From Promethearchaeota archaeon (GTDB lineage: Archaea; Asgardarchaeota; Thorarchaeia; Thorarchaeales; Thorarchaeaceae), in assembly GCA_027031765.1 (NCBI GenBank), contig JALVPN010000041.1, positions 15,129 to 47,128 of the forward strand: DNA of 32,000 bases. The letters are read 5' to 3'. Numbering within the stretch: position 1 is the stretch's first letter; each line of letters starts with the position of its first letter. A model generated the notes under the pieces. It did no database searches and was not told the origin of the DNA. It was given only the letters and a program-made list of their open reading frames with translations. The position numbers and the translations under genes are program-made. Below are positions 7,262 through 17,040 of the stretch, in pieces.

Positions 7262-7512
7262 CTTCCAGTCTTCCTCCTCACGGCTCCTGCTGGCCGCTGG
7301 ACGCAGCTACGTCCGTGGAGTGTTGGGGATCTGTGATGCTGGGTGAGCACGCTATGGACTCCTCCCGACCAATCTCTGGTCCTACCCGACTGTGAGAGTG
7401 GTCTACGTGCAGCGGGTCGTGGCTTGCCGTGGAGCGATAGTGCCGGCCCCATGACGTCGGACTCGTGATGTGATGTAGTCCGTCCCGACGGTGGCACTTG
7501 CCGCTCGGAAAG

Positions 7513-7520
7513 CCTAATAA
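7513..7520 (+). promoter_or_regulatory. BRE/TATA-like element upstream of rpl13e
   Basis: GGAAAG-CCTAATAA about 41 nt before ATG 7561. Confidence 0.5.
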
Positions 7521-7560
7521 GCAGTCCTCCTGTCCTCGCCCAATGACAGGTGAACCGGTA

Positions 7561-8004
7561 ATGAGCTCAGAGGTTGTTGCTGAGGCCATGATACGGTCTC
7601 CACGTGATGGTCGTCCGCGCAGGGGTCGTGGGTTCAGCCGTGAAGAGATAAGGCGGGCAGGGCTCACGGTACACGAGGCACGTCGCATTGGTCTGATGGT
7701 GGATGTACGACGGAAGACCGTGTATGACGAGAACGTGGAGGCGGTCAGGCAGCTGCTCGCTGACCTGGAGACCATGGGGCCGGGGGTCACTGCTCCAGCG
7801 TCAGACAAGGGCCGTGACGCTGCAGTCCGTGCTCTCTCGTTCCTGAAGGAGGTGACAGAGGCCGACGCCGAAGCGCTCGTTGCCGCCGGAGTCCGTTCTC
7901 TTGAAGACCTTGCCTACTGCGATATCTCTGCTGTCGTGTCCAAGACGGGTATCGACCAGGACCGTCTCACATCGATGGTAAAGGCTGCACTGAAGAAGGT
8001 GTGA
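7561..8004 (+). CDS. rpl13e: Ribosomal protein eL13 fused to a C-terminal helix-hairpin-helix (NusA-AR/RadA-N-like) domain
   Basis: RGRGFSREEIRRAGLTVHEARRIGLMVDVRRKTVYDENVEA is the archaeal eL13 signature. The C-terminal LVAAGVRSLEDLA...TGID segment is HhH-like. Confidence 0.88.
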   Translation: MSSEVVAEAMIRSPRDGRPRRGRGFSREEIRRAGLTVHEARRIGLMVDVRRKTVYDENVEAVRQLLADLETMGPGVTAPASDKGRDAAVRALSFLKEVTEADAEALVAAGVRSLEDLAYCDISAVVSKTGIDQDRLTSMVKAALKKV

Positions 8005-8025
8005 TGCACAGGGACATCCCAACTA

Positions 8026-8067
8026 CGTAGAGTATCCCCTGCTGTTCGTAGAGTATTCCCTGCTGTT
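8026..8067 (+). repeat. Tandem 21-bp direct repeat, 2 copies, 1 mismatch
   Basis: cgtagagtatcccctgctgtt followed by cgtagagtattccctgctgtt. Confidence 0.85.
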
Positions 8068-8401
8068 GCACGGTGTGCGTGGCAATGGGCACTGTTCCGA
8101 CCGGCCCGACACGCCATTCCAGCACAGCAGGTCAGTGTGGTCACTGTAGTGCCGACCGGCCCACTCATTGTCCCGCCTAGCGAGCTGGCACGACCAGCTG
8201 AAGATGTGGTGCCCTGCTGAACAGGTGACTGGTGGGGGCTGTCAGTGTTGTCCATTCACCTGTTTCCACCGCTCCACCGGCAACATGTGCCCTTGCCAGT
8301 CACATCCCCTTGAGCGCTCGGAGAGTTGTGCGGGAAGCTACTTGAGCCACCGAACACCACTTGTTTGCCATTCACCACTGGTACCCGTGGGACTGCTGGT
8401 G

Positions 8402-9309
8402 GTGCCGGTTGGGCCTAGAGCATGTGCTGACCAAACTCAGGTCTGACGAGTCCGTACGGGGGTATGCACTACTGACCAGTTCCGGCCGGCCAGTCCTCTC
8501 ATTCAGGCTGCCCGAGGAGGTCATGTCAAGGACACATGGCACCCTGCAGGTATTGGCGGCCTCGCTCAGGCCCGTGAATGTCATTGCTGACGAGGGGACT
8601 GCTGTTCTCGCACATCTGAACTCTGACTAGGTACTCACTGTCACATTTGATTCCAAGTTGAACCTTGGCGAGGCCCTCGAGAGAACCCCGGTTGTTGTGA
8701 CCCTCCTCAGGCGGGCAGACCTCCCCGAACCCCCAGACTCAGAGGTCTCTGTGCCCACTGTTGAGATTCGGGTGGTCCACACTGCCGCCACTGTGGGCCC
8801 AACATGGTCCGCTTAGGGGCCCCTTTTGCCACGCCCCGCGTTCCAGATACGCCACGGCTGTGTGATGTCACCGGACAGACGCTACGATGAGGCAATCCGC
8901 ATCGGTTACGACCTGGATGTCCAGATACGGTCATGGTTCTCAAACATGGGCCTTGACATGCTGATGTATGTTGACAGCAACAACACCCTCACATCGAGAT
9001 TGCCGAAAACTTGCGCAGGATGTCGAGAGGGTGATCAATGTCCTGCAGTGGTGCTATGATAACTGGGTTGTCGGTGCTGAATGTCCTGAAGAGCAGGCGC
9101 CAGCAAAGAGGGAAATCCTTGAGATGCCCACGTACGAAGGGCACCTTGAGGACGCCAAGAAATAGCACCGGAGAGTCCTTGAACTGTGCTACGGTACGAG
9201 GACGGTCCAGGAGGTTGCCGACCATCTGGGCCTCCTCTACTTGGATGTGTTGAAGGCCATACTCCCCTATCGGGACAAGACTCTGAGAATGGTGCGTCGT
9301 ACAAGATGA
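8402..9309 (+). pseudogene. Disrupted paralog of the Roadblock + tandem winged-helix gene at 11389-12357
   Basis: Manual translation aligns with the paralog end to end (LEHVLTKLRSDESVRGYALLTSSGRP vs LERALSKLRFDDQVIGYSLMTKAGRP; GLDMLMYVD vs GFDVLMLVD; LCYGTRTVQEVA vs MCDGTRTPEEIA). Lesions: +1 at about 8411-8414, TAG 8628, TAG 8814, two -1 shifts at about 8991-9009, TAG 9163. Confidence 0.85.
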
Positions 9310-9325
9310 CTGTGGAGGTCAAGTC

Positions 9326-9829
9326 GTGGGTGTGAAGGGAAAGTTGGCATGGGCACTGAAGACTGACAGGGTATCGGAGCCGTCATTCCAGGCCATCTAC
9401 CGCGAGTTCGTGAACCTGCTACTTGAGACATGCGAGAGCGTTGACGAGATCAACCGCCGACTGAAAGAGGTCGGCTTTCATGTTGGGGGGCGTATCCTCC
9501 CTTAGTATGCCGACAAGATACGGGAGCACGCAAAGGAGTTCCATGAGTCTGCGTCAACCTTGCAGCTGGCGTACAAGGTGAACCTTGGACAGGAGTTCAC
9601 GACCGTGTGGATTAGAAACGACCGAAAGACCATCAAGTTCAGCGATGAACGGTGTGTCATCTGCGAGGGAGTTGAGATTGCGGACATGCCGGGACTGCAG
9701 TACTGCAACCTTTTGAGTGGCGTGTTCCAGGCTGTCCTGGGCCTCCGGGGCTTCAAGGGCACGACGTATCAGGAGACCTGTCGGGCACTCGGCGACCCGG
9801 AGTGCATGTGGACAACCAAGTCCGAATAG
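9326..9829 (+). pseudogene. Bet3/TRAPPC3-like V4R protein interrupted by one in-frame TAG (9503-9505)
   Basis: One frame reads DRVSEPSFQAIYREFVNLLLETCESVDEINRRLKEVGFHVGGRILP*YADKIRE...LQYCNLLSGVFQAVL...TCRALGDPEC. GGAGGT at 9314-9319 precedes GTG 9326. Confidence 0.85.
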
Positions 9830-10008
9830 ACCGCGCACCACCCACACCCGGTGCACTTGGTATGTATGTTGGACACTGGAGTGGTCAGCCCATCCTGACC
9901 GGCCGGTCTCCGCAAAGGTAAAGAGTGGTAGTAGTCTTACCAGGCCTGCATGTGTCGGCTGTCACCTGCACAACAATGGTCGCCGTGTGCACGCGAGAGG
10001 AGATAGAC

Positions 10009-10509
10009 ATGGGTCAAATTACCGGTGCCTTCCTTGGATTCATCACTGCATTCATTGCCTGCTTCCTGATACTGCTCTTCGGGACGTTCGTCCCAGAGGA
10101 TGTCGTGGCGTCCAGCATAGTGGACGACTTCGTCGGGCACCCCGACTTGGAACTGAAGCTTGCCATTGTTGGGACCGTCCTGTACCCACCCCACCTGGGC
10201 CAGATGTTACCGTACGGTGCGCAGCAGAGCACCGTGCTCATGGCCCTAGTGTGGGGCCTCGGGGGCCTGCTCGCCGGCCTCGTTTCTCGTGACATCGTGA
10301 AAGGGGTCTTTGCAGCAATCTTTGCCGTGGTCATCGGTGCTGTGCTGACATGGCTGATGGTCTTCATTGTCCAGACTGCCGACATCGCCGCAATCTTTGG
10401 GTCGTTGTCACTCCTGATCTTACAAGTCACTTTTGAGGGGACATTATACCCGCTAATAGCTGCAGTGATTGGTGGTCTCCTCGGGAGTGCTATCACGCGC
10501 GAGCGGTAG
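10009..10509 (+). CDS. Hypothetical multi-pass membrane protein (about 4-5 TM)
   Basis: Several hydrophobic stretches; GAGGAG precedes ATG 10009. Confidence 0.8.
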   Translation: MGQITGAFLGFITAFIACFLILLFGTFVPEDVVASSIVDDFVGHPDLELKLAIVGTVLYPPHLGQMLPYGAQQSTVLMALVWGLGGLLAGLVSRDIVKGVFAAIFAVVIGAVLTWLMVFIVQTADIAAIFGSLSLLILQVTFEGTLYPLIAAVIGGLLGSAITRER

Positions 10510-11232
10510 TCAGTCCTGATGACCTGCACCGACAGCCCCCACACATTCCTCCCACTCGTCCTCAGCGGCTCCCATCTCCAGCTGTCGTCCGCAATATGCA
10601 CAGACGAGTGGGTTCGACTTGAAGACCGCGCCGCATGTGCACACCGTTTCGATTTTCAGTGGTGGTGGTACCTGCTGTCTGCGGGTGATGGCCGTCTTCA
10701 GGGTGGCCGTCGTCATCCACCCGGGCACGGAGAGGCCAGACGCCAACATCGCAGCAACGAAGTGCAGGAACAGTGCCCAGTTCCGGGCATCTCTGTCGCC
10801 AGTCCAAAGTGTGGGGTCAAGTAGGAGGGCTGATGTCAGCGAACCAAGGAGCACAAGCCCTCCCATCCAGACGGATGTGCGCATACAGTTGCTGCGTGAT
10901 GTGGCGGGGATCCCCGCAACAGCACCCATCAGGGCCCACACAAGGGCGTACTGAATCCATGCACCAGCACTGGCTGATGTCATGCTGACCGGGTGGAGGT
11001 GCTGAGTGCCTGTCAGGAACACCCACAAGGGCCAGGACAAGCGCACTGGATACCCGGGCTCCTGGAGGTCTTTCAAGACGACCACTGCAACTGCTCCCAG
11101 TGAAACGCCAACCATGGCGCCGAGAAAGTCTCTCAAGGCCTGCCGTCTCCGCGCTTGGGCACAGTTGTAGCCCGGGGGAGTGCTCCCGGCCATCGCCGGA
11201 CGTCCATCCATCAGACGGACCCGTGCCCGCAT
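10510..11232 (-). CDS. Multi-pass membrane protein with C-terminal zinc ribbon (CxC...CxxC); start uncertain
   Basis: About four hydrophobic segments, then ETVCTCGAVFKSNPLVCAYCG. Confidence 0.75.
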   Translation of the reverse strand: MRARVRLMDGRPAMAGSTPPGYNCAQARRRQALRDFLGAMVGVSLGAVAVVVLKDLQEPGYPVRLSWPLWVFLTGTQHLHPVSMTSASAGAWIQYALVWALMGAVAGIPATSRSNCMRTSVWMGGLVLLGSLTSALLLDPTLWTGDRDARNWALFLHFVAAMLASGLSVPGWMTTATLKTAITRRQQVPPPLKIETVCTCGAVFKSNPLVCAYCGRQLEMGAAEDEWEECVGAVGAGHQD

Positions 11233-11388
11233 GTGTGTGTCCTCTCGCTGATGCGGAACACTTAATGGTTTCTAAGGCGCCTTACAAGAATGGCTGAGTA
11301 TGGAACCACAATGCTTTTCAGACCTCTAGACGACATACGAGCTTGTCCTGCAGGTCTGGACTAACAAGAGGCTGTGAGGTGGACCAGG

Positions 11389-12357
11389 GTGCCGGGTGAC
11401 CTTGAAAGAGCGCTTTCGAAGTTGAGGTTTGATGACCAAGTGATTGGCTATTCGTTGATGACCAAAGCGGGGCGCCCGTTCGTGAGCTTCTCTTTCCCGG
11501 ATGACCTGTTCCCCCGTGTCAAAGAGAGCATCAGCCTCTACAAGGCAGACCTGCGTCTCATGACCATTGACACGGACAAGGGCCTCGTTGTCCTGTCACC
11601 CGTGGACAACAACTGGATCCTGACCGTGCTGTATGTGCCAGAGCTCCAGCTTGGGCTTGCCATCGCGAAGACCAAGAACGTGCTCCGTCAGCTTGAGGGT
11701 GCCGAGCTGCCACCGCCGCCAGAAGACTTCGAGGACTCGGCCGAGGAGAACCTCCAGGTGTTGGAGCGTGTCGCAATCCAGGCTGCGTCGACATCCACAG
11801 TCACGAGCACAGTCGCGCCCCCAGCCGCCCCTGTAGAAGAGGCGGTGCCGGCAGAGAAGTCCCCTGAGGACTTTGTGGTGACTCCGAGCACGGTCCCAAA
11901 GAAGGGCCCCCAGTACTCTCTGGCCCTCTCCCTAGACTCGCCCCTCTACAATGACATGCGTGAGCGCTACCGCAACTTTGGTTTCGACGTCCTCATGCTT
12001 GTCGACGGCACGATGACCGCTGGTCAGATTGCCGAGGCGATGTTCCAGCCCAACGACCGCATCATCGAGCTACTGAAGTGGGCTGCGTCAAAGGACATCG
12101 TTGAGGTGCCGGAGGCGGAGGCCGCAGGCCAGGCAGTTTCGGAGCCCACAGCGATAGGACGCTTCGTCAAGTGTCCAAAGTTCGAGGGCGACATCTCAAA
12201 GGTGCGGGCTGAGGACCGGCAGATAATCAGCATGTGCGACGGCACCAGGACTCCTGAGGAGATTGCAGAGGCGCTTGGAATCCCCCACGCAAAGGTAGTC
12301 CAGGCCCTTGGCCGGAACCGTCGTTATGGCCTGAAGATGATTGGCCGGGCCAAGTAA
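11389..12357 (+). CDS. Roadblock/LAMTOR-like domain + Pro/acidic linker + two winged-helix domains
   Basis: The N-terminal ~100 aa follow the roadblock secondary-structure pattern, ending in WILTVLY...QLGLA. Two repeats of xxLxxxDGxxTxxxIA. GAGGTG precedes GTG 11389; the alternative start is 11374. Confidence 0.8.
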   Translation: MPGDLERALSKLRFDDQVIGYSLMTKAGRPFVSFSFPDDLFPRVKESISLYKADLRLMTIDTDKGLVVLSPVDNNWILTVLYVPELQLGLAIAKTKNVLRQLEGAELPPPPEDFEDSAEENLQVLERVAIQAASTSTVTSTVAPPAAPVEEAVPAEKSPEDFVVTPSTVPKKGPQYSLALSLDSPLYNDMRERYRNFGFDVLMLVDGTMTAGQIAEAMFQPNDRIIELLKWAASKDIVEVPEAEAAGQAVSEPTAIGRFVKCPKFEGDISKVRAEDRQIISMCDGTRTPEEIAEALGIPHAKVVQALGRNRRYGLKMIGRAK

Positions 12358-12396
12358 GGACGGCCAGTTCCAACTGTTCCCAGAGGTGCACCAGTC

Positions 12397-12870
12397 ATGG
12401 CAAAGGCACAGAACCCACTTTTCCTGAGTCTGTACTCGTTCAACGTCGACAGAATCCTTGAGGAGTCCAGCAACGTCGAGGAGGCCAATGAACGGCTCCG
12501 TACCCTCGGGAGGGAGCTGGCCCAGCAGCTCTACTTCTCTACAGACATTGAGGAGCGGAGCAAGGAGACCATACTTACACGTGAGGATGTCGCAAAGCTC
12601 GTGGAGGTGGTCTTCAGGGCACTCTTTGACAAGAAGCCCACCGAGATTGACCTGGAGTCGGCGCGCGGGTCAATCAGGGTGTCCGACCGTGACTGCATAT
12701 TCTGTCAGGACATTCACCTTGAGGGGGTGCGCGGGGTCGGGTACTGCGAGGTCTTCAGTGGCATCCTTGAGTCCATTCTTGAGTTCAAGGGTGTTGACTC
12801 GAAGGTCTTTGAGGAGCTCTGCAAGGCCACAGGGGCCGACTTCTGTGTGTGGAACATCCGTTTGATCTGA
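12397..12870 (+). CDS. Bet3/TRAPPC3-like V4R-fold protein
   Basis: LFLSLYSFNV...NVEEANERLRTLG, CIFC, YCEVFSGILESIL and LCKATGADFC. Confidence 0.85.
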   Translation: MAKAQNPLFLSLYSFNVDRILEESSNVEEANERLRTLGRELAQQLYFSTDIEERSKETILTREDVAKLVEVVFRALFDKKPTEIDLESARGSIRVSDRDCIFCQDIHLEGVRGVGYCEVFSGILESILEFKGVDSKVFEELCKATGADFCVWNIRLI

Positions 12871-12948
12871 CCGGCACCCGGAGCGACACATGTTGCAGTC
12901 GCTATGAGATGGTCCGTTGTCATGTAGGCCATAGGTCAGCACAAAGCA

Positions 12949-12956
12949 CTTAACTC
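12949..12956 (+). promoter_or_regulatory. BRE/TATA-like element upstream of the third V4R gene
   Basis: CAAAGCA-CTTAACTC about 37 nt before ATG 12993. Confidence 0.45.
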
Positions 12957-12992
12957 ACTATTCTGCCACAGGTGTAAACGGGAGAGTCCGCG

Positions 12993-13547
12993 ATGTCGAA
13001 GCAAGAAACCCTACATTGGTGGACTGGCAAGCTGAAAGAACGTGACCTGATGCGTGCGTTCTTTTCCAAGACGTGGAACAAGATTGGCAGTCGGATTGCT
13101 GTGATGTTTCCCGACCGTGTCCGTGACCTCTACTACAGTGCAGGACGCCTTGCGGGCCTCGAGGCCCAGCGGGAGTACTTCAAGGTCGGGAAGCAGAAGC
13201 CCCCCGGCGACTTCAAGGGCATCGTTGAGTTCATCAAGATGGCCCTTGAGACCCTCATAATCCCGTTCGGTGATGTCAAGATCACAAAGCTGTACAAGCT
13301 GTGGCTTGACGAGGAGGCAATAATCGAGATCAAGGACAACCCATACGCATCGGGATACCAGGCCGATGAGCCGTCGTGCTTCTTCCTGAAGGGCTTCATC
13401 GAGGCGGTTATGGAGTACCTGGCAGACTTCAACAGGCTCGAGTACGAGAAGATGTTGATTGTCGAGGAGACCTGCATGTCTGCAGGGGCGCCGTCTTGCA
13501 CTTTCAAAATCACACTCTCGCACCCTGCACGCGGCCAGGAGCGGTAG
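12993..13547 (+). CDS. V4R-domain protein
   Basis: LYYSAGRLAG, NPYA...PSCFFLKGFIEAV and EETCMSAGAPSCTF are classic V4R motifs. Confidence 0.88.
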   Translation: MSKQETLHWWTGKLKERDLMRAFFSKTWNKIGSRIAVMFPDRVRDLYYSAGRLAGLEAQREYFKVGKQKPPGDFKGIVEFIKMALETLIIPFGDVKITKLYKLWLDEEAIIEIKDNPYASGYQADEPSCFFLKGFIEAVMEYLADFNRLEYEKMLIVEETCMSAGAPSCTFKITLSHPARGQER

Positions 13548-13580: not shown

Positions 13581-14369
13581 GTGGACACGAGTGTCGCACT
13601 GGTCATGACTATGGGCCGAGTCAAGGTGAAGACCGCTGTCACTGTGGGCACTGCACTGATAGTGACTTCTGTATTGTTCGGGGTGCTGCTCGTACTCCCC
13701 ACTGCTGTAGACAACAACGGTGCTCCCCACTCATACCATGCTATGGGGCCTGCCCACCATGCCCTTGCTGCACTCGACCTCACAGTATCTCTCCCGTGTA
13801 CCAGTGCAGGCACCTCGGTGGTGCTCCCGGGCCAGTCCCTCCCAGCACTCGCGACCTCCACATCGTTTGCCCTGCTCACCGGGACCGTGGTCATTGAACG
13901 GAAGGGCACCAAGTGTCGTTCGGACCTCAGGATACGGGTTGTGGACATCATCGCCTCTGAGCCCGGTATCCACTTGCGAGGAATACGCAGGGCCCTTGGC
14001 TGTGCCATGGGAGCCCTCCAGTACCACATTGCCCAGCTTGAGTCTGACGGGGAAGTCGTGTCGGTCCGGACTGGCAACGCGCGCCACTTCTTCGTGTCCA
14101 CTTTTTCGGATGACGCACGCGTCCTGCATCTTGCATCCGTACTGCGGAACCCCACGGTCAGCGCAATCGTGCGGGCCTGTATGGATGCCAGTCCGGTCAC
14201 GCAGGCGCAGATTGGCCGGGCCCTCAGCATTGACAAGAGCCTTGTGGCACACTATGTCCGGTCACTGCTCGACGCCGATGTGCTGCGTATAGTGCCCACC
14301 TTTGGCCGTGAGCGTCCGCTCGCCCTGACCGACTGGGCAATGACAGCGCTGACAGACCTGCTCACGTGA
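13581..14369 (+). CDS. Tandem winged-HTH transcriptional regulator with N-terminal membrane segment; start uncertain (13581/13605/13611)
   Basis: IIASEPGIHLRGIRRALG...GALQYHI and a second HTH (VTQAQIGRAL...LVAHYVRSL). The N-terminus is hydrophobic. Confidence 0.8.
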   Translation: MDTSVALVMTMGRVKVKTAVTVGTALIVTSVLFGVLLVLPTAVDNNGAPHSYHAMGPAHHALAALDLTVSLPCTSAGTSVVLPGQSLPALATSTSFALLTGTVVIERKGTKCRSDLRIRVVDIIASEPGIHLRGIRRALGCAMGALQYHIAQLESDGEVVSVRTGNARHFFVSTFSDDARVLHLASVLRNPTVSAIVRACMDASPVTQAQIGRALSIDKSLVAHYVRSLLDADVLRIVPTFGRERPLALTDWAMTALTDLLT

Positions 14370-14450
14370 CTGGTCTCGTCCTCACCCCTCGTGACGACCC
14401 GGTCAGTCCGGGTAGGACACACAGACACAGACTGGAGGCCTCTCCACTTG

Positions 14451-15197
14451 ATGGACAACACCGACGATACGACTGAGCCCCTCACAATTGAGGAGACCGT
14501 GGCCCCCGAGAGGGAGGTCGAGTTTGCCGTAAGGCTAACGGATGTGACACGTACCTATGTACTGGGAAAGCGCGAGATACATGCGCTCCAGGGCGTCAGC
14601 TTCGAAGTGCGTCCCGGTGAGTATGTGGTCGTCCGGGGCCCCTCTGGTTCCGGCAAGACCACACTGCTGAACATCATCGGCTGCATCGACCTCGCCACAA
14701 GTGGCCGTGTGGTGGTCATGGACGTCCCGATTGCCGAGTACGATGAGGTGTTCAGGGCCACTTTCCGCCTCACGTACACCGGGTTCATCTTCCAGAGCTA
14801 CAACCTGATCTCGACGCTCACGGCCATGGAGAACATCATGTTCCCGATGCAGCTCTCGGAGCAGCCGGAGAGTGAGGTGCGTGAGAGAGCTGCCATGCTG
14901 CTCGAGCGCGTGGGGCTTGCCGACCGGGCAGACCATCTCCCATGGCAGTTGAGCTCGGGTGAGCAACAGCGTGTGGCCATTGCACGGGCCATGGCGAACG
15001 ACCCGCCAATCATCCTCGCAGACGAGCCCACTGCGAACCTCGACCAGGAGAGTGCCGGGATGATCCGCGAGTTACTGCGGGAACTGAACGGGGATGGCAA
15101 GACCGTGATTGTCATGACCCACGACGACGAGATAGTCTCGACGCCGGGTGCTCGCCGGTTTGTAATGGACGGGGGTGTGCTGCTCCAAGATGACTGA
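14451..15197 (+). CDS. ABC transporter ATP-binding protein, LolD/MacB-type
   Basis: GPSGSGKT, LSSGEQQRVAIARA, ILADEPTANLD and MTHD motifs. Confidence 0.95.
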   Translation: MDNTDDTTEPLTIEETVAPEREVEFAVRLTDVTRTYVLGKREIHALQGVSFEVRPGEYVVVRGPSGSGKTTLLNIIGCIDLATSGRVVVMDVPIAEYDEVFRATFRLTYTGFIFQSYNLISTLTAMENIMFPMQLSEQPESEVRERAAMLLERVGLADRADHLPWQLSSGEQQRVAIARAMANDPPIILADEPTANLDQESAGMIRELLRELNGDGKTVIVMTHDDEIVSTPGARRFVMDGGVLLQDD

Positions 15198-17040
15198 ACT
15201 CGACTTCGCCTCCCGCGACCTGAAGCGCCGCCCGTTCCGCACGGCCCTCGTCCTGCTGTCGATGGTCACAGTTGTCACGGCGACTACATTCCTGTACCTC
15301 TTTGCAAATGTCCTCTTGGACATCAGCCTGTTCGTTGTGTCCGAGGGGCCAATGGCGTCGCTCAGTGTGCTCTTTGAGACCTTCGTCTGGGCTGTGCTCC
15401 TCCTTGTCCTGATCCTCGGTGTGGTGGTCGTTGCAAGCACAGTGTCACTTGAAATGGCCAGCCGGTACAGGGACATCGGCCTGATGAAGGCAGTCGGTAC
15501 CACTGTCGATGTGCTCTTCGACCACTTCACAGCCCAGTCGGTGTTGCTCCTGGTCTCCAGTGTCGTCTTGGGTGTGGCCTCCGGTACGGCCATCTATCTC
15601 GCCTCGTTGTTGTGGCTTGCATGGGTGTTACCGGGCGTCCACTTCGTCTTCCAGTTCCCGTACCTACAGGTCGGGCTCCTGGCTGTGGTGTACTTGCTCA
15701 CTGGCTACTTTGCAGCCCAGAAGGCGATATACGATGCTGTGCAGGAGCCCCCTGTCCATACACTGAACCCGGATGTGGGGACCCGTGTTCAGAGGGCTGG
15801 CTTCCTTGATGGTCTGGGCCTCTCCTTCAGGATTGCAGCCAAGGCCACTGGACGCAGGTTCCATGGCACACGCAGGGTGATACTCTCCCTGTCCCTCGGC
15901 ATCATGCTCGCCTCTGTCCTCTGGGTCGGTGGCGGCGTCGTCGAGGCCACCACCCACTCGTACGTCGAACGCGCTATGGGTAGGAACATCGTGGCTGTTG
16001 GTCACCCGGCCCTCCTTGACAGGTACTATGAGGCATACTCTCTCTATGGACGTCCCCTCAACGAGTCGTGCTCGTTCATAGACGACTCCTACATGGTGCC
16101 GGACAGCCTGGTCAGTGCCCTCGCTACTACAGACGGTGTCCTGCAGGTCGACGCACGCCTGATAGACTTCACGACGGTGGAGGAAAAGCGTGGTGTGGTC
16201 TGGAACCCCACGCTGGAACAGTACGAGCTCATCGGTCAGGAGCGTACCGGCCAGGCACTGGTCGTTGGTGTGGACTGGGGGTCTACGGTTTCGGACTGGT
16301 ACTATGAGGGTGAGCCAATCAACGCGACTGGACAGGTATGGGTGGGTGGCCGGCTTGCGACCACGATGTTTGACGACCCCTTGGTACAGAGCATGGGCGT
16401 CCATGGCCGTGCCCTCAAGGTGCGTGCCATCATGTTCGACATCGTGAACAACGGGATGGTGGCGGTGACGACGCGGGACTTCCTCCAAGAGGCACTGGGC
16501 ACTGATGGCGTGAACCTCGTCCTCGTCCAGCTGGAAAGCTATGATGGTGTGCTCCTCTCACGGATTGAGGACATGGCTGCGGAGTACGGCCTTGGCATCT
16601 ATCTGCAGGAGGAGGTCCTCAGTCAGAACCACAGGGTGATCTCCACCCTCTGGTCCCTCATATCGCCGCTGTCCCTGATGGCCTTCGCAAGCGCTTTCTT
16701 CAGCCTGACAGACTACCTGCTGGTGGCAGTATTCTCCAGGCTCCGAGACTATGTCATCATGCGTTCCATCGGTGCAAAGCCACTGTTCATAGCAAAGTGC
16801 ATTGTTGCCGAGGGCCTCGACATGGGCCTGCGCGCTGCCGTCCCGGGCATTCTGGTCGGCGTCGTGCTGAGCGTACTCTTCCTGGTGCCGGAGGCGGTCA
16901 TCCCGACTGTGTGGTACCTCCCGGTTTCCATCGGCCTGATGCTCCTTGCCATAGTGGTCGTGGTCGTGCTTGCCGCAGCCCCAGTCTATGTCCTGTTCTC
17001 GACGAGGAGCGACCTCCGTGTCTCAGAGTTCCAGGTCTAG
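15190..17040 (+). CDS. ABC transporter permease with two FtsX-like domains (MacB/LolE-type)
   Basis: RYRDIGLMKAVG and RLRDYVIMRSIGA FtsX motifs, multiple TMs and a large extracytoplasmic domain; overlaps the ATPase stop. Confidence 0.9.
   Translation: MTELDFASRDLKRRPFRTALVLLSMVTVVTATTFLYLFANVLLDISLFVVSEGPMASLSVLFETFVWAVLLLVLILGVVVVASTVSLEMASRYRDIGLMKAVGTTVDVLFDHFTAQSVLLLVSSVVLGVASGTAIYLASLLWLAWVLPGVHFVFQFPYLQVGLLAVVYLLTGYFAAQKAIYDAVQEPPVHTLNPDVGTRVQRAGFLDGLGLSFRIAAKATGRRFHGTRRVILSLSLGIMLASVLWVGGGVVEATTHSYVERAMGRNIVAVGHPALLDRYYEAYSLYGRPLNESCSFIDDSYMVPDSLVSALATTDGVLQVDARLIDFTTVEEKRGVVWNPTLEQYELIGQERTGQALVVGVDWGSTVSDWYYEGEPINATGQVWVGGRLATTMFDDPLVQSMGVHGRALKVRAIMFDIVNNGMVAVTTRDFLQEALGTDGVNLVLVQLESYDGVLLSRIEDMAAEYGLGIYLQEEVLSQNHRVISTLWSLISPLSLMAFASAFFSLTDYLLVAVFSRLRDYVIMRSIGAKPLFIAKCIVAEGLDMGLRAAVPGILVGVVLSVLFLVPEAVIPTVWYLPVSIGLMLLAIVVVVVLAAAPVYVLFSTRSDLRVSEFQV

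Follow-up and report, generated by a model that had tools for sequence, protein, structure and literature searches.

We analysed a stretch of 32,000 nucleotides (the window; positions 15,129 to 47,128 of contig JALVPN010000041.1, here C41) from an Asgard metagenome-assembled genome (MAG) of the Thorarchaeaceae, 2.95 Mb in size and 95% complete. Between positions 8402 and 13547, the window carries two ancient paralogous two-gene units, A and B, the second of which is intact. In each unit, a gene for a protein with a Roadblock domain and two winged helices (wH1 and wH2; proteins RbA and RbB) is followed by a gene for a relative of the TRAPP subunit TRAPPC3/Bet3 (Bet3A and Bet3B). The association of such a Roadblock- or longin-wH gene with a Bet3 gene goes far beyond chance and is found in at least 11 Asgard families. 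The parts were known, a TRAPPC3-like protein having been crystallised and an NPRL2-like family noted. The tight pairing itself appears undescribed: no earlier description of a conserved Roadblock/longin-wH and Bet3 pairing was found in the searchable literature.

Conservation of the Roadblock-wH/Bet3 pairing

An earlier note on this DNA, made from the letters alone, had listed seven genes in the order Roadblock-2xwH, Bet3-like, transmembrane (TM) protein, TM-zinc-ribbon protein, Roadblock-2xwH, Bet3-like and V4R, and had taken the repeated pairing as the sign of a functional complex. In the open reading frame (ORF) map, all seven genes were found in this order and at the places expected (Table 1). 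The pairing, present twice at the locus, was also borne out by synteny. Within the family, the order L13e, kinase, RbA, Bet3A, TM, TM-zinc-ribbon (reverse strand), RbB, Bet3B, V4R, helix-turn-helix (HTH), ATP-binding cassette (ABC) is kept in 19 of the 20 genomes examined (16 genera). Of 301 genomes sampled from the phylum, 186 contain Bet3-like genes. At 23 of 39 loci from other families, a gene with a wH2-like C-terminal region of ~50 amino acids (aa) adjoins the Bet3-like gene, which adds ten further families (f2, f4, f12, f13, f15, f16, f17, f19, f20 and f28). This wH2 gene is mostly located directly upstream of Bet3 on the same strand, at distances ranging from an overlap to ~150 nt. The exceptions are f7, with tandem Bet3 genes lacking a wH partner, and f9, f24 and f30, where the matches are weakly V4R-like only.

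The two genes could in principle be neighbours merely through synteny inherited within one family, with no functional link between them. Indeed, the whole family region is syntenic, including unrelated genes such as those for L13e, the kinase and the ABC transporter. However, the adjacency recurs in the ten other families, where the flanks are otherwise unrelated. In addition, the best genome-wide wH2 match adjoins a Bet3-like gene in five out of five other Asgard genomes tested, and a fused longin-Bet3 form exists. We therefore consider such a fortuitous association highly improbable. In the present genome, RbA and RbB are the only clear wH2 matches.

The N-terminal domain of the partner varies, being Roadblock-like, longin-like or, in f12, a small beta-rich domain. 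When a profile of the longin-type partners was compared with the PDB, Bet5 (E 0.008), Trs23 and TRAPPC1 came out on top (E range 0.008-0.6), and four of seven members matched Pfam Sybindin. Although weak, these sequence matches to TRAPP longins agree with one another. In one genome (G033, L039:3318-4208), a longin domain is fused to Bet3 without any winged helix. A search for relatives of this fusion returned itself alone, the two other matches combining a longin with a coiled coil and no Bet3, and the search for Bet3 proteins longer than the Bet3A query, as possible fusions, found none. Tran et al. (2024, PMC10933270) mention a longin-Bet3-type fusion in a Heimdall genome.

Other neighbours were also recorded. 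In a genome of another class (G036), an ABC-type ATPase and a multi-pass membrane protein adjoin the Roadblock-wH/Bet3 pair (L042:9500-12150), and a further neighbour is a putative HTH regulator, PadR-like by eye. In G035, a 320-aa protein encoded two genes downstream of the Bet3-like gene (L036:5550-6512) carries the motif IVWVWMGHG, which we take to be reminiscent of gelsolin-type domains.

Folds and relatives of the encoded proteins

The RbB ORF opens at 11374, from which residue numbers are counted here; GTG 11389 is favoured as the start codon because of a Shine-Dalgarno (SD)-like GAGGTG at 11376. In the AlphaFold2 model (mean predicted local distance difference test score, pLDDT, of 87), residues 8-107 form the Roadblock domain, followed by a linker and the two winged helices. 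The order of secondary structure elements in the N-terminal domain, α-β-β-α-β-β-β-α, corresponds to the Roadblock topology. Superpositions (101-112 residues aligned, root mean square deviation (rmsd) 2.2-3.1 Å) gave Z values of 12.9 to 9JUE, 12.7 to p14/LAMTOR2 (1SKO) and 11.9 to MglB, so that the best values were obtained with LAMTOR2, MglB and Asgard Roadblocks. The model does not follow the longin topology (β-β-α-β-β-β-α-α), a fold of a related superfamily. At the sequence level, RbB had no match to Pfam Robl_LC7 (PF03259) at E≤1, and sequence profile A1 found Thor-RB 7F8M only at E 0.077. An ELPPPP sequence (11707-11724, residues 112-117) immediately follows the Roadblock domain and is nearly invariant in the A and B families. 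From its sequence, it may be a candidate docking site for a proline-binding partner. In the β1-β2 loop, a G-x-P motif was observed with G33 invariant and P35 nearly so, reading GRPF in B and G[SAQT]PF in A. A D-G-x-P loop is common among Roadblock proteins generally. The G-x-P loop was insufficiently specific to be read as the 'GP motif' of longins that are GTPase-activating proteins (GAPs), and this assignment was set aside.

The C-terminal half of RbB points to NPRL2. With the full-length model, the best Foldseek matches were NPRL2/Npr2. When the C-terminal half was folded alone (pLDDT 87), the top eight matches were all NPRL2/NPRL3 chains, with E values from 2e-3 to 7e-2. The wH1 domain superposed on residues 163-236 of NPRL2 with Z 10.3 (rmsd 2.3 Å, 74 residues) and on residues 233-306 of Npr2 with Z 9.8-9.9, as compared to Z ~6 for generic winged helices; the NPRL3 match covers both winged helices. 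In a shape search of the ESM Atlas, the first named family was eukaryotic NPR2 (cluster TM-score 0.40). Sequence searches did not retrieve these proteins: Pfam NPR2 (PF06218) gave no RbB match at E≤1, profiles A1 and A3 found no NPRL2/3 chains from the PDB at E≤10, and one distant partner protein matched Pfam NPR2 at E 0.099 only.

In eukaryotes, NPRL2/NPRL3 (Npr2/Npr3) of GATOR1/SEACIT act as a GAP for RagA/Gtr1. RbB shows the same module order, that is an N-terminal domain of the Roadblock/longin superfamily, a linker and tandem winged helices. It differs from NPRL2/3 by its lack of a sequence match to PF06218, by its Roadblock topology and by the lack of a conserved arginine finger in what we examined. 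Moreover, the gene paired with RbB codes for a Bet3-fold protein, a combination unknown in eukaryotes. Hence, the GATOR-like character proposed for the module held for the architecture of the Roadblock-2xwH proteins and for wH1, and failed for the NPR2 sequence match and the longin topology. An NPRL2-like family was described 'in most Thor MAGs' by Liu et al. (2020, bioRxiv 10.1101/2020.10.19.343400), in a text containing neither 'TRAPP' nor 'V4R'. Judging from its description alone, this family is probably that of RbA and RbB.

Bet3B is the ortholog of the crystallised Thor-TRAPPC3 proteins. It aligned over its full length with 7YH2_A (Thor AB25; E 3.4e-69) and 7YH3_A (SMTZ1-45; E 1.1e-67) and shows 60-68% identity to Thorarchaeota proteins; Atlas clusters name Candidatus Thorarchaeota as well. 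Among 47 sequences, the zinc-binding cysteines C100, C103 and C150 never vary and C117 hardly does; all four align to cysteines of 7YH2, the Cys4 zinc site thus being shared. With Pfam TRAPP (PF04051, cut-off 27), Bet3A read through its TAG scored 37.3 bits. Bet3B stayed just below the cut-off (26.3 bits when proteins were scanned, 25.7 bits when the genome was). In the tree, the Thorarchaeota Bet3A groups with Bet3-like proteins of other Asgard classes (support 97/83), while Bet3B branches apart, together with the only copy found in G025, the sole genome sampled from the sister family f2. This placement on separate branches shows that the A/B duplication is old. Therefore, as the earlier note had supposed, the Bet3-like proteins are true relatives of TRAPPC3. 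In the accessible part of the Thor-TRAPPC3 paper (PMC10933270), the protein is described as a Zn-bound homodimer resembling TRAPPC3/C6. That part covers the protein alone and leaves undescribed the adjacent Roadblock-wH protein, the A paralog, which is a pseudogene in our genome, and the V4R neighbour.

The third gene of the B side codes for a bona fide V4R-domain protein (39.3 bits, E 6.9e-10, with a cut-off of 31). With 67-84% identity, it is better conserved than any other gene here, and it follows the B pair in this family as well as in the one other family sampled from the same order. Bet3-fold and V4R proteins are homologous (Podar et al. 2008, PMC2253512). As compared to the known V4R sensors (PoxR/DmpR/XylR, MJ1460 2OSO), among which PoxR also has a Cys-bound Zn, no AAA+ or HTH domain is fused to the protein here, and the candidate effector would be the separate Roadblock-wH protein. 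The question raised earlier, whether the V4R-fold proteins of the locus side with Bet3 or with ligand sensors, thus receives a divided answer: Bet3A and Bet3B are relatives of TRAPPC3, whereas the third gene is a classical V4R with a promoter-like box of its own.

Possible functions of the pair

We tentatively favour, at somewhat less than even confidence, a hetero-oligomeric platform of the Roadblock-wH and Bet3 proteins that would regulate a small GTPase. Each unit encodes a cytosolic protein of ~300-330 aa, in which a Roadblock domain at the N-terminus is joined through a proline-rich, acidic linker to two winged helices arranged as in NPRL2/NPRL3, together with a second protein of ~160 aa having the zinc-binding TRAPPC3/Bet3 fold. 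Roadblock and Bet3 folds both dimerise, and the two products could assemble into a hetero-oligomer. We infer that this assembly might take the role of guanine nucleotide exchange factor (GEF), GAP or scaffold for a small GTPase encoded elsewhere, with the hydrophobic cavity of the Bet3/V4R fold as a possible ligand input. Four grounds speak for this platform: how deeply the adjacency is conserved, the existence of a fused form, the roles of the two folds in eukaryotes, and the GTPase genes found next to the module at other loci. A complex prediction with full-length RbB (42-row alignment) and Bet3B (47 rows) scored 0.02, giving no answer either way.

The GTPase neighbours were found in three of ~14 families, which suggests a link with the module. 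In G063 (f16), three tandem Ras/Rab-like genes are followed by a Sybindin-like longin-wH gene and then by a Bet3-like gene, all on one strand (L087:3244-6864). The gene next after this Bet3-like gene codes for an ATPase-like protein with the P-loop motif GPPGTSKST. In f7, three of the 12-15 GTPase genes of the genome are located ≤3 kb from Bet3, and a Roadblock gene is found there too. A GTPase gene of the SRPRB/Arf/MglA-like kind stands divergent from the Roadblock-wH gene in G025 (f2). A linkage of this last type was rejected for the present genome, which has 25 Ras-family GTPases: here the ortholog (C31:45311-46006) is on another contig with a tetratricopeptide repeat (TPR) neighbour. Since ~0.4 of 14 families would be expected to show such adjacency by chance, the evidence is suggestive, not decisive. 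Tran et al. (2024, Commun Biol, PMC10933270) state that small GTPases can hardly be matched to their regulators from genome layout.

Two known systems can be compared to the proposed platform. In actinobacterial conservons, CvnB (Roadblock), CvnC (DUF742, winged-helix-like) and CvnD (GTPase) are encoded together. The likeness with conservons and with MglB/MglA lies in the neighbourhood of a Roadblock protein, a small winged-helix protein and a small GTPase; two of the partner proteins weakly match DUF742 (E 7e-4 and 0.04). However, the module described here has Roadblock and winged helix in a single polypeptide and a Bet3-fold protein in addition, it lacks a sensor kinase, and in this family there is no GTPase at the locus. 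The eukaryotic TRAPP core, a Rab GEF, is made of Bet3/TRAPPC3, Trs31 and Trs33 with the longins Bet5/TRAPPC1 and Trs23/TRAPPC4. It resembles the Asgard unit in the coupling of a Bet3-fold protein with a protein of the Roadblock/longin superfamily, which in one lineage goes as far as fusion, and in the partner longins of other Asgard families, whose best, if weak, matches are Bet5, Trs23, TRAPPC1 and Pfam Sybindin. In contrast, the Thorarchaeota partner has the Roadblock topology and winged helices, which TRAPP subunits lack. The label proto-TRAPP given to the locus beforehand is supported on the Bet3 side and, weakly, by the longin partners elsewhere.

It is rather unlikely, in our estimate, that the Asgard (longin/Roadblock)-wH and Bet3 unit is a real complex and a forerunner of the TRAPP core, with TRAPP- and GATOR1-type regulators both stemming from one archaeal platform. 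If this were true, a single Bet3-longin-wH platform would already have acted on Rab/Rag-like GTPases, the Thorarchaeota version being equipped with NPRL2-type winged helices. TRAPPC3-like, Roadblock/longin and NPRL2-like proteins are Asgard eukaryotic signature proteins that have so far been studied as isolated folds. The conserved adjacency and the one fusion now designate a concrete pair, of which one partner has already been purified and crystallised. The pairing makes it directly testable whether a TRAPP- or GATOR-like regulator predates eukaryotes. The gene set of G063, with its three Ras/Rab-like GTPases, is the best natural candidate for a GTPase assay.

Several observations weigh against a GTPase-regulating platform. 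This contig carries no small GTPase gene, and none was seen at the locus when 20 family genomes were examined; in the other families GTPase adjacency is only modestly above the rough chance estimate. In the models, the N-terminal domain of RbB has Roadblock rather than longin topology, and the predicted likeness to NPRL2 is structural only, as neither Pfam NPR2 nor profile searches of the PDB retrieve NPRL2. No conserved Arg comparable to a GAP finger is apparent in the alignments, the Arg of GRPF in B being absent in A. The matches of the longin-type partners to TRAPP longins have E values too high to count as significant by the usual standards. Unit A is dispensable, as its repeated loss (see below) shows. 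The classical role of V4R domains is to sense ligands for transcription regulators (PMC2253512). Finally, the constant element of the partner across Asgard genomes is the small basic wH2, which weakly matches DNA-binding HTH families.

The last two points lead to the main rival, an alternative that we regard as unlikely, though less so than the lipid scaffold considered below: a ligand-sensing transcription regulator, in which the Bet3/V4R-fold protein would bind a hydrophobic small molecule and signal in trans to a DNA-binding Roadblock-wH protein. Its targets would be neighbouring promoters, namely its own and those of the membrane proteins and of the downstream HTH/ABC exporter genes. V4R domains typically act as sensors on transcription or signalling effectors in cis or in trans (PMC2253512), and, for Thor-TRAPPC3 (PMC10933270), internal cavities are described and ligand binding is proposed. 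The winged helices could equally be DNA-binding. The wH2 of RbB is basic (pI 9.7), its helix 3 retains K/R, Q and Y-R-K/R among orthologs, and it weakly matches TrmB, MarR, sigma-70 r4 and AsnC-type HTH domains, with Z 5.5-5.7 to LuxR-type DNA-binding domains. Moreover, the genes downstream in the family are an HTH gene of the HVO_0163 type and a MacB-like ABC exporter. On the other hand, wH1 is acidic and resembles specifically NPRL2, a protein that does not bind DNA. Helix 3 of the A-type wH2 is hydrophobic/aromatic (YF.ALQ..PY) rather than basic. The boxes upstream of the genes are promoter-like, common to three units and devoid of dyad symmetry. One lineage fuses the longin straight to Bet3 and drops the winged helix altogether, and GTPase genes adjoin the module in three families. 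In addition, wH1 and the wH region of the partners also weakly match the peptide-binding RRE/PqqD domains.

The earlier note had further attached membrane partners to the module. The TM protein has several overlapping hydrophobic stretches in a hydropathy scan, a weak match to DUF5518 and a glycine-zipper-like C-terminus; the TM-zinc-ribbon protein has three hydrophobic stretches and evolves fast (26-41% identity in the family). Both genes are conserved only inside the family, alongside unrelated housekeeping neighbours, and both remain unbroken in G013, which has lost the A pair, and in this genome, where that pair is dead. We did not count them in the module, and this part of the proposal found no support.

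These genes also bear on a GTPase-free scaffold for hydrophobic ligands or lipids, an alternative that we hold to be quite improbable. Dimers of the Bet3/V4R fold would carry a lipid-like molecule, and the Roadblock-wH protein would link them to other proteins or to the membrane; the adjacent membrane proteins and the exporter are possible docking sites. The cavities of Thor-TRAPPC3, the palmitate bound by mouse TRAPPC3 and the suggestion of 'ligand transport', all from PMC10933270, are consistent with this scaffold. So are the synteny of two membrane proteins and an ABC exporter in the family, and the presence of membrane proteins and an ABC-2 transporter beside the pair of G036. Nevertheless, the membrane genes are not conserved outside the family and, as said, survive without a functional A pair. 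Adjacency to an ABC transporter is weak evidence because such transporters are common. The hydropathy scan showed no TM segment in RbB or Bet3B, and no amphipathic or membrane-binding element was identified in them.

Decay of the A pair, transcription units and neighbouring genes

The A unit of this genome is a recently inactivated pseudogene pair. As already suspected from the letters, the upstream Roadblock-2xwH gene is broken and its Bet3-like partner interrupted by a single TAG. Alignment showed RbA to be collinear with its intact orthologs (300-336 aa in 19 relatives) and to carry four lesions: three in-frame TAGs, at 8628 (conserved Trp), 8814 (linker) and 9163 (Gln/Glu in orthologs), and a +1 frameshift near 8980-9000. 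The window sequence is contained in a hydrothermal-vent metagenome DNA run. A second contig assembly, from run X1, matches positions 8300-9364 and 9440-9900 with zero differences at a depth of ~11.6, which shows that the lesions are in the data; run X1 is probably the sample of the MAG itself, so that this check is not an independent one. Recoding of TAG, as for pyrrolysine, was rejected. TAG is the normal stop of several intact genes of the window and also ends Bet3A, and no PylS scored above cut-off in a genome search. At this codon usage, 72% of the single substitutions that create a nonsense codon yield TAG (P ~0.27 for four out of four). Finally, RbA is also frameshifted.

Relatives have a PfkB-like kinase gene (~366 aa) that separates L13e from RbA (e.g. 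L017:4327-5427, L020:4158-5282). A tblastn search found it neither at 8005-8408 nor anywhere in the 95%-complete assembly. The deletion of the kinase gene coincides with the decay of the A pair. Damage to the A unit is not restricted to this genome, since the pair is lost or broken in two other genera. It is absent from G013. In another genus of the family, the A unit has decayed independently: Bet3A of G003 carries an in-frame TAA (L019:10001-10495), that of G185 is reduced to a 32-aa remnant (L086:10202-10297), and in both cases RbA, beside the damaged gene, is matched by tblastn over almost all of its length. By contrast, the B pair is intact in 20 out of 20 relatives examined. Therefore, A is dispensable and B works without it. 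The repeated loss within the Thorarchaeaceae shows that the partnership of the two paralogous units is not obligate. This evidence, together with the recent decay of a pan-Asgard A pair, is what is specific to the window.

Table 1. Genes and promoter-like boxes of the locus, in window coordinates
Feature	Position	Strand	Remarks
Remnant of box AAGYTACTTAA, GAAGCTACTTGAG	8334-8346	+	degenerate; upstream of RbA
RbA pseudogene	~8409-9309	+	Roadblock, linker, two winged helices (NPRL2-like architecture); terminal TGA 9307
Bet3A pseudogene	9326-9829	+	TRAPPC3/Bet3-like gene of the pan-Asgard type; one in-frame TAG, 9503
Multi-pass membrane protein	9925-10509	+	intact; likely start ATG 10009
TM protein with C-terminal Cys4 zinc-ribbon-like motif	10510-11232	-	intact; divergent from RbB
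Box CCACAATGCTTTTCAG	11306-11321	+	~55-75 nt upstream of RbB
RbB	11389-12357	+	intact; Roadblock, acidic disordered linker, winged helix 1, winged helix 2
Bet3B	12397-12870	+	intact; ortholog of Thor-TRAPPC3
Box CACAAAGCACTTAAC	12940-12954	+	~40 nt upstream of the V4R gene; conserved in relatives examined
V4R-domain protein	12993-13547	+	Pfam PF02830

Three boxes were found upstream of RbA, RbB and the V4R gene, with the common form AA(A/T)G-N-(C/A)(T/C)TT(T/A)A. In relatives, the AAGYTACTTAA box is located ~60-70 nt upstream of RbA, within the 3' end of the PfkB-like kinase gene. The 16-nt RbB box is kept in all 21 sequences compared (the window and 20 loci of family f1) and occurs once in this genome. 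An operator search, which included the divergent intergenic region, showed no dyad symmetry in any of the three. The boxes were not accepted as proof of a regulator site; from their sequence, they probably represent the B recognition element (BRE)/TATA consensus of Thorarchaeaceae promoters. Their conservation suggests that RbA-Bet3A, RbB-Bet3B and V4R are separate transcription units. RbB and Bet3B are probably co-transcribed, because Bet3B starts 39 nt after RbB with an SD of its own; each of the two genes has a GAGGTG-type SD.

Downstream of the V4R gene, the region 13581-17040 codes for a membrane-anchored protein with two HTH regions (HVO_0163 N-terminal HTH and MarR-like), then for a MacB/FtsX-type ABC exporter. 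Both stay syntenic with the module throughout the family. The remainder of the window is made of housekeeping genes, such as those for glutamine synthetase, lysyl-tRNA synthetase, CCA-adding enzyme and PAC2. The upstream neighbour of the module codes for ribosomal protein L13e (7498-8004, + strand). Its core (Pfam 4.9e-10) is fused to a C-terminal helix-hairpin-helix (HHH_5, 4e-5), and the same long form of L13e, 148-168 aa, is present in the relatives of the family.

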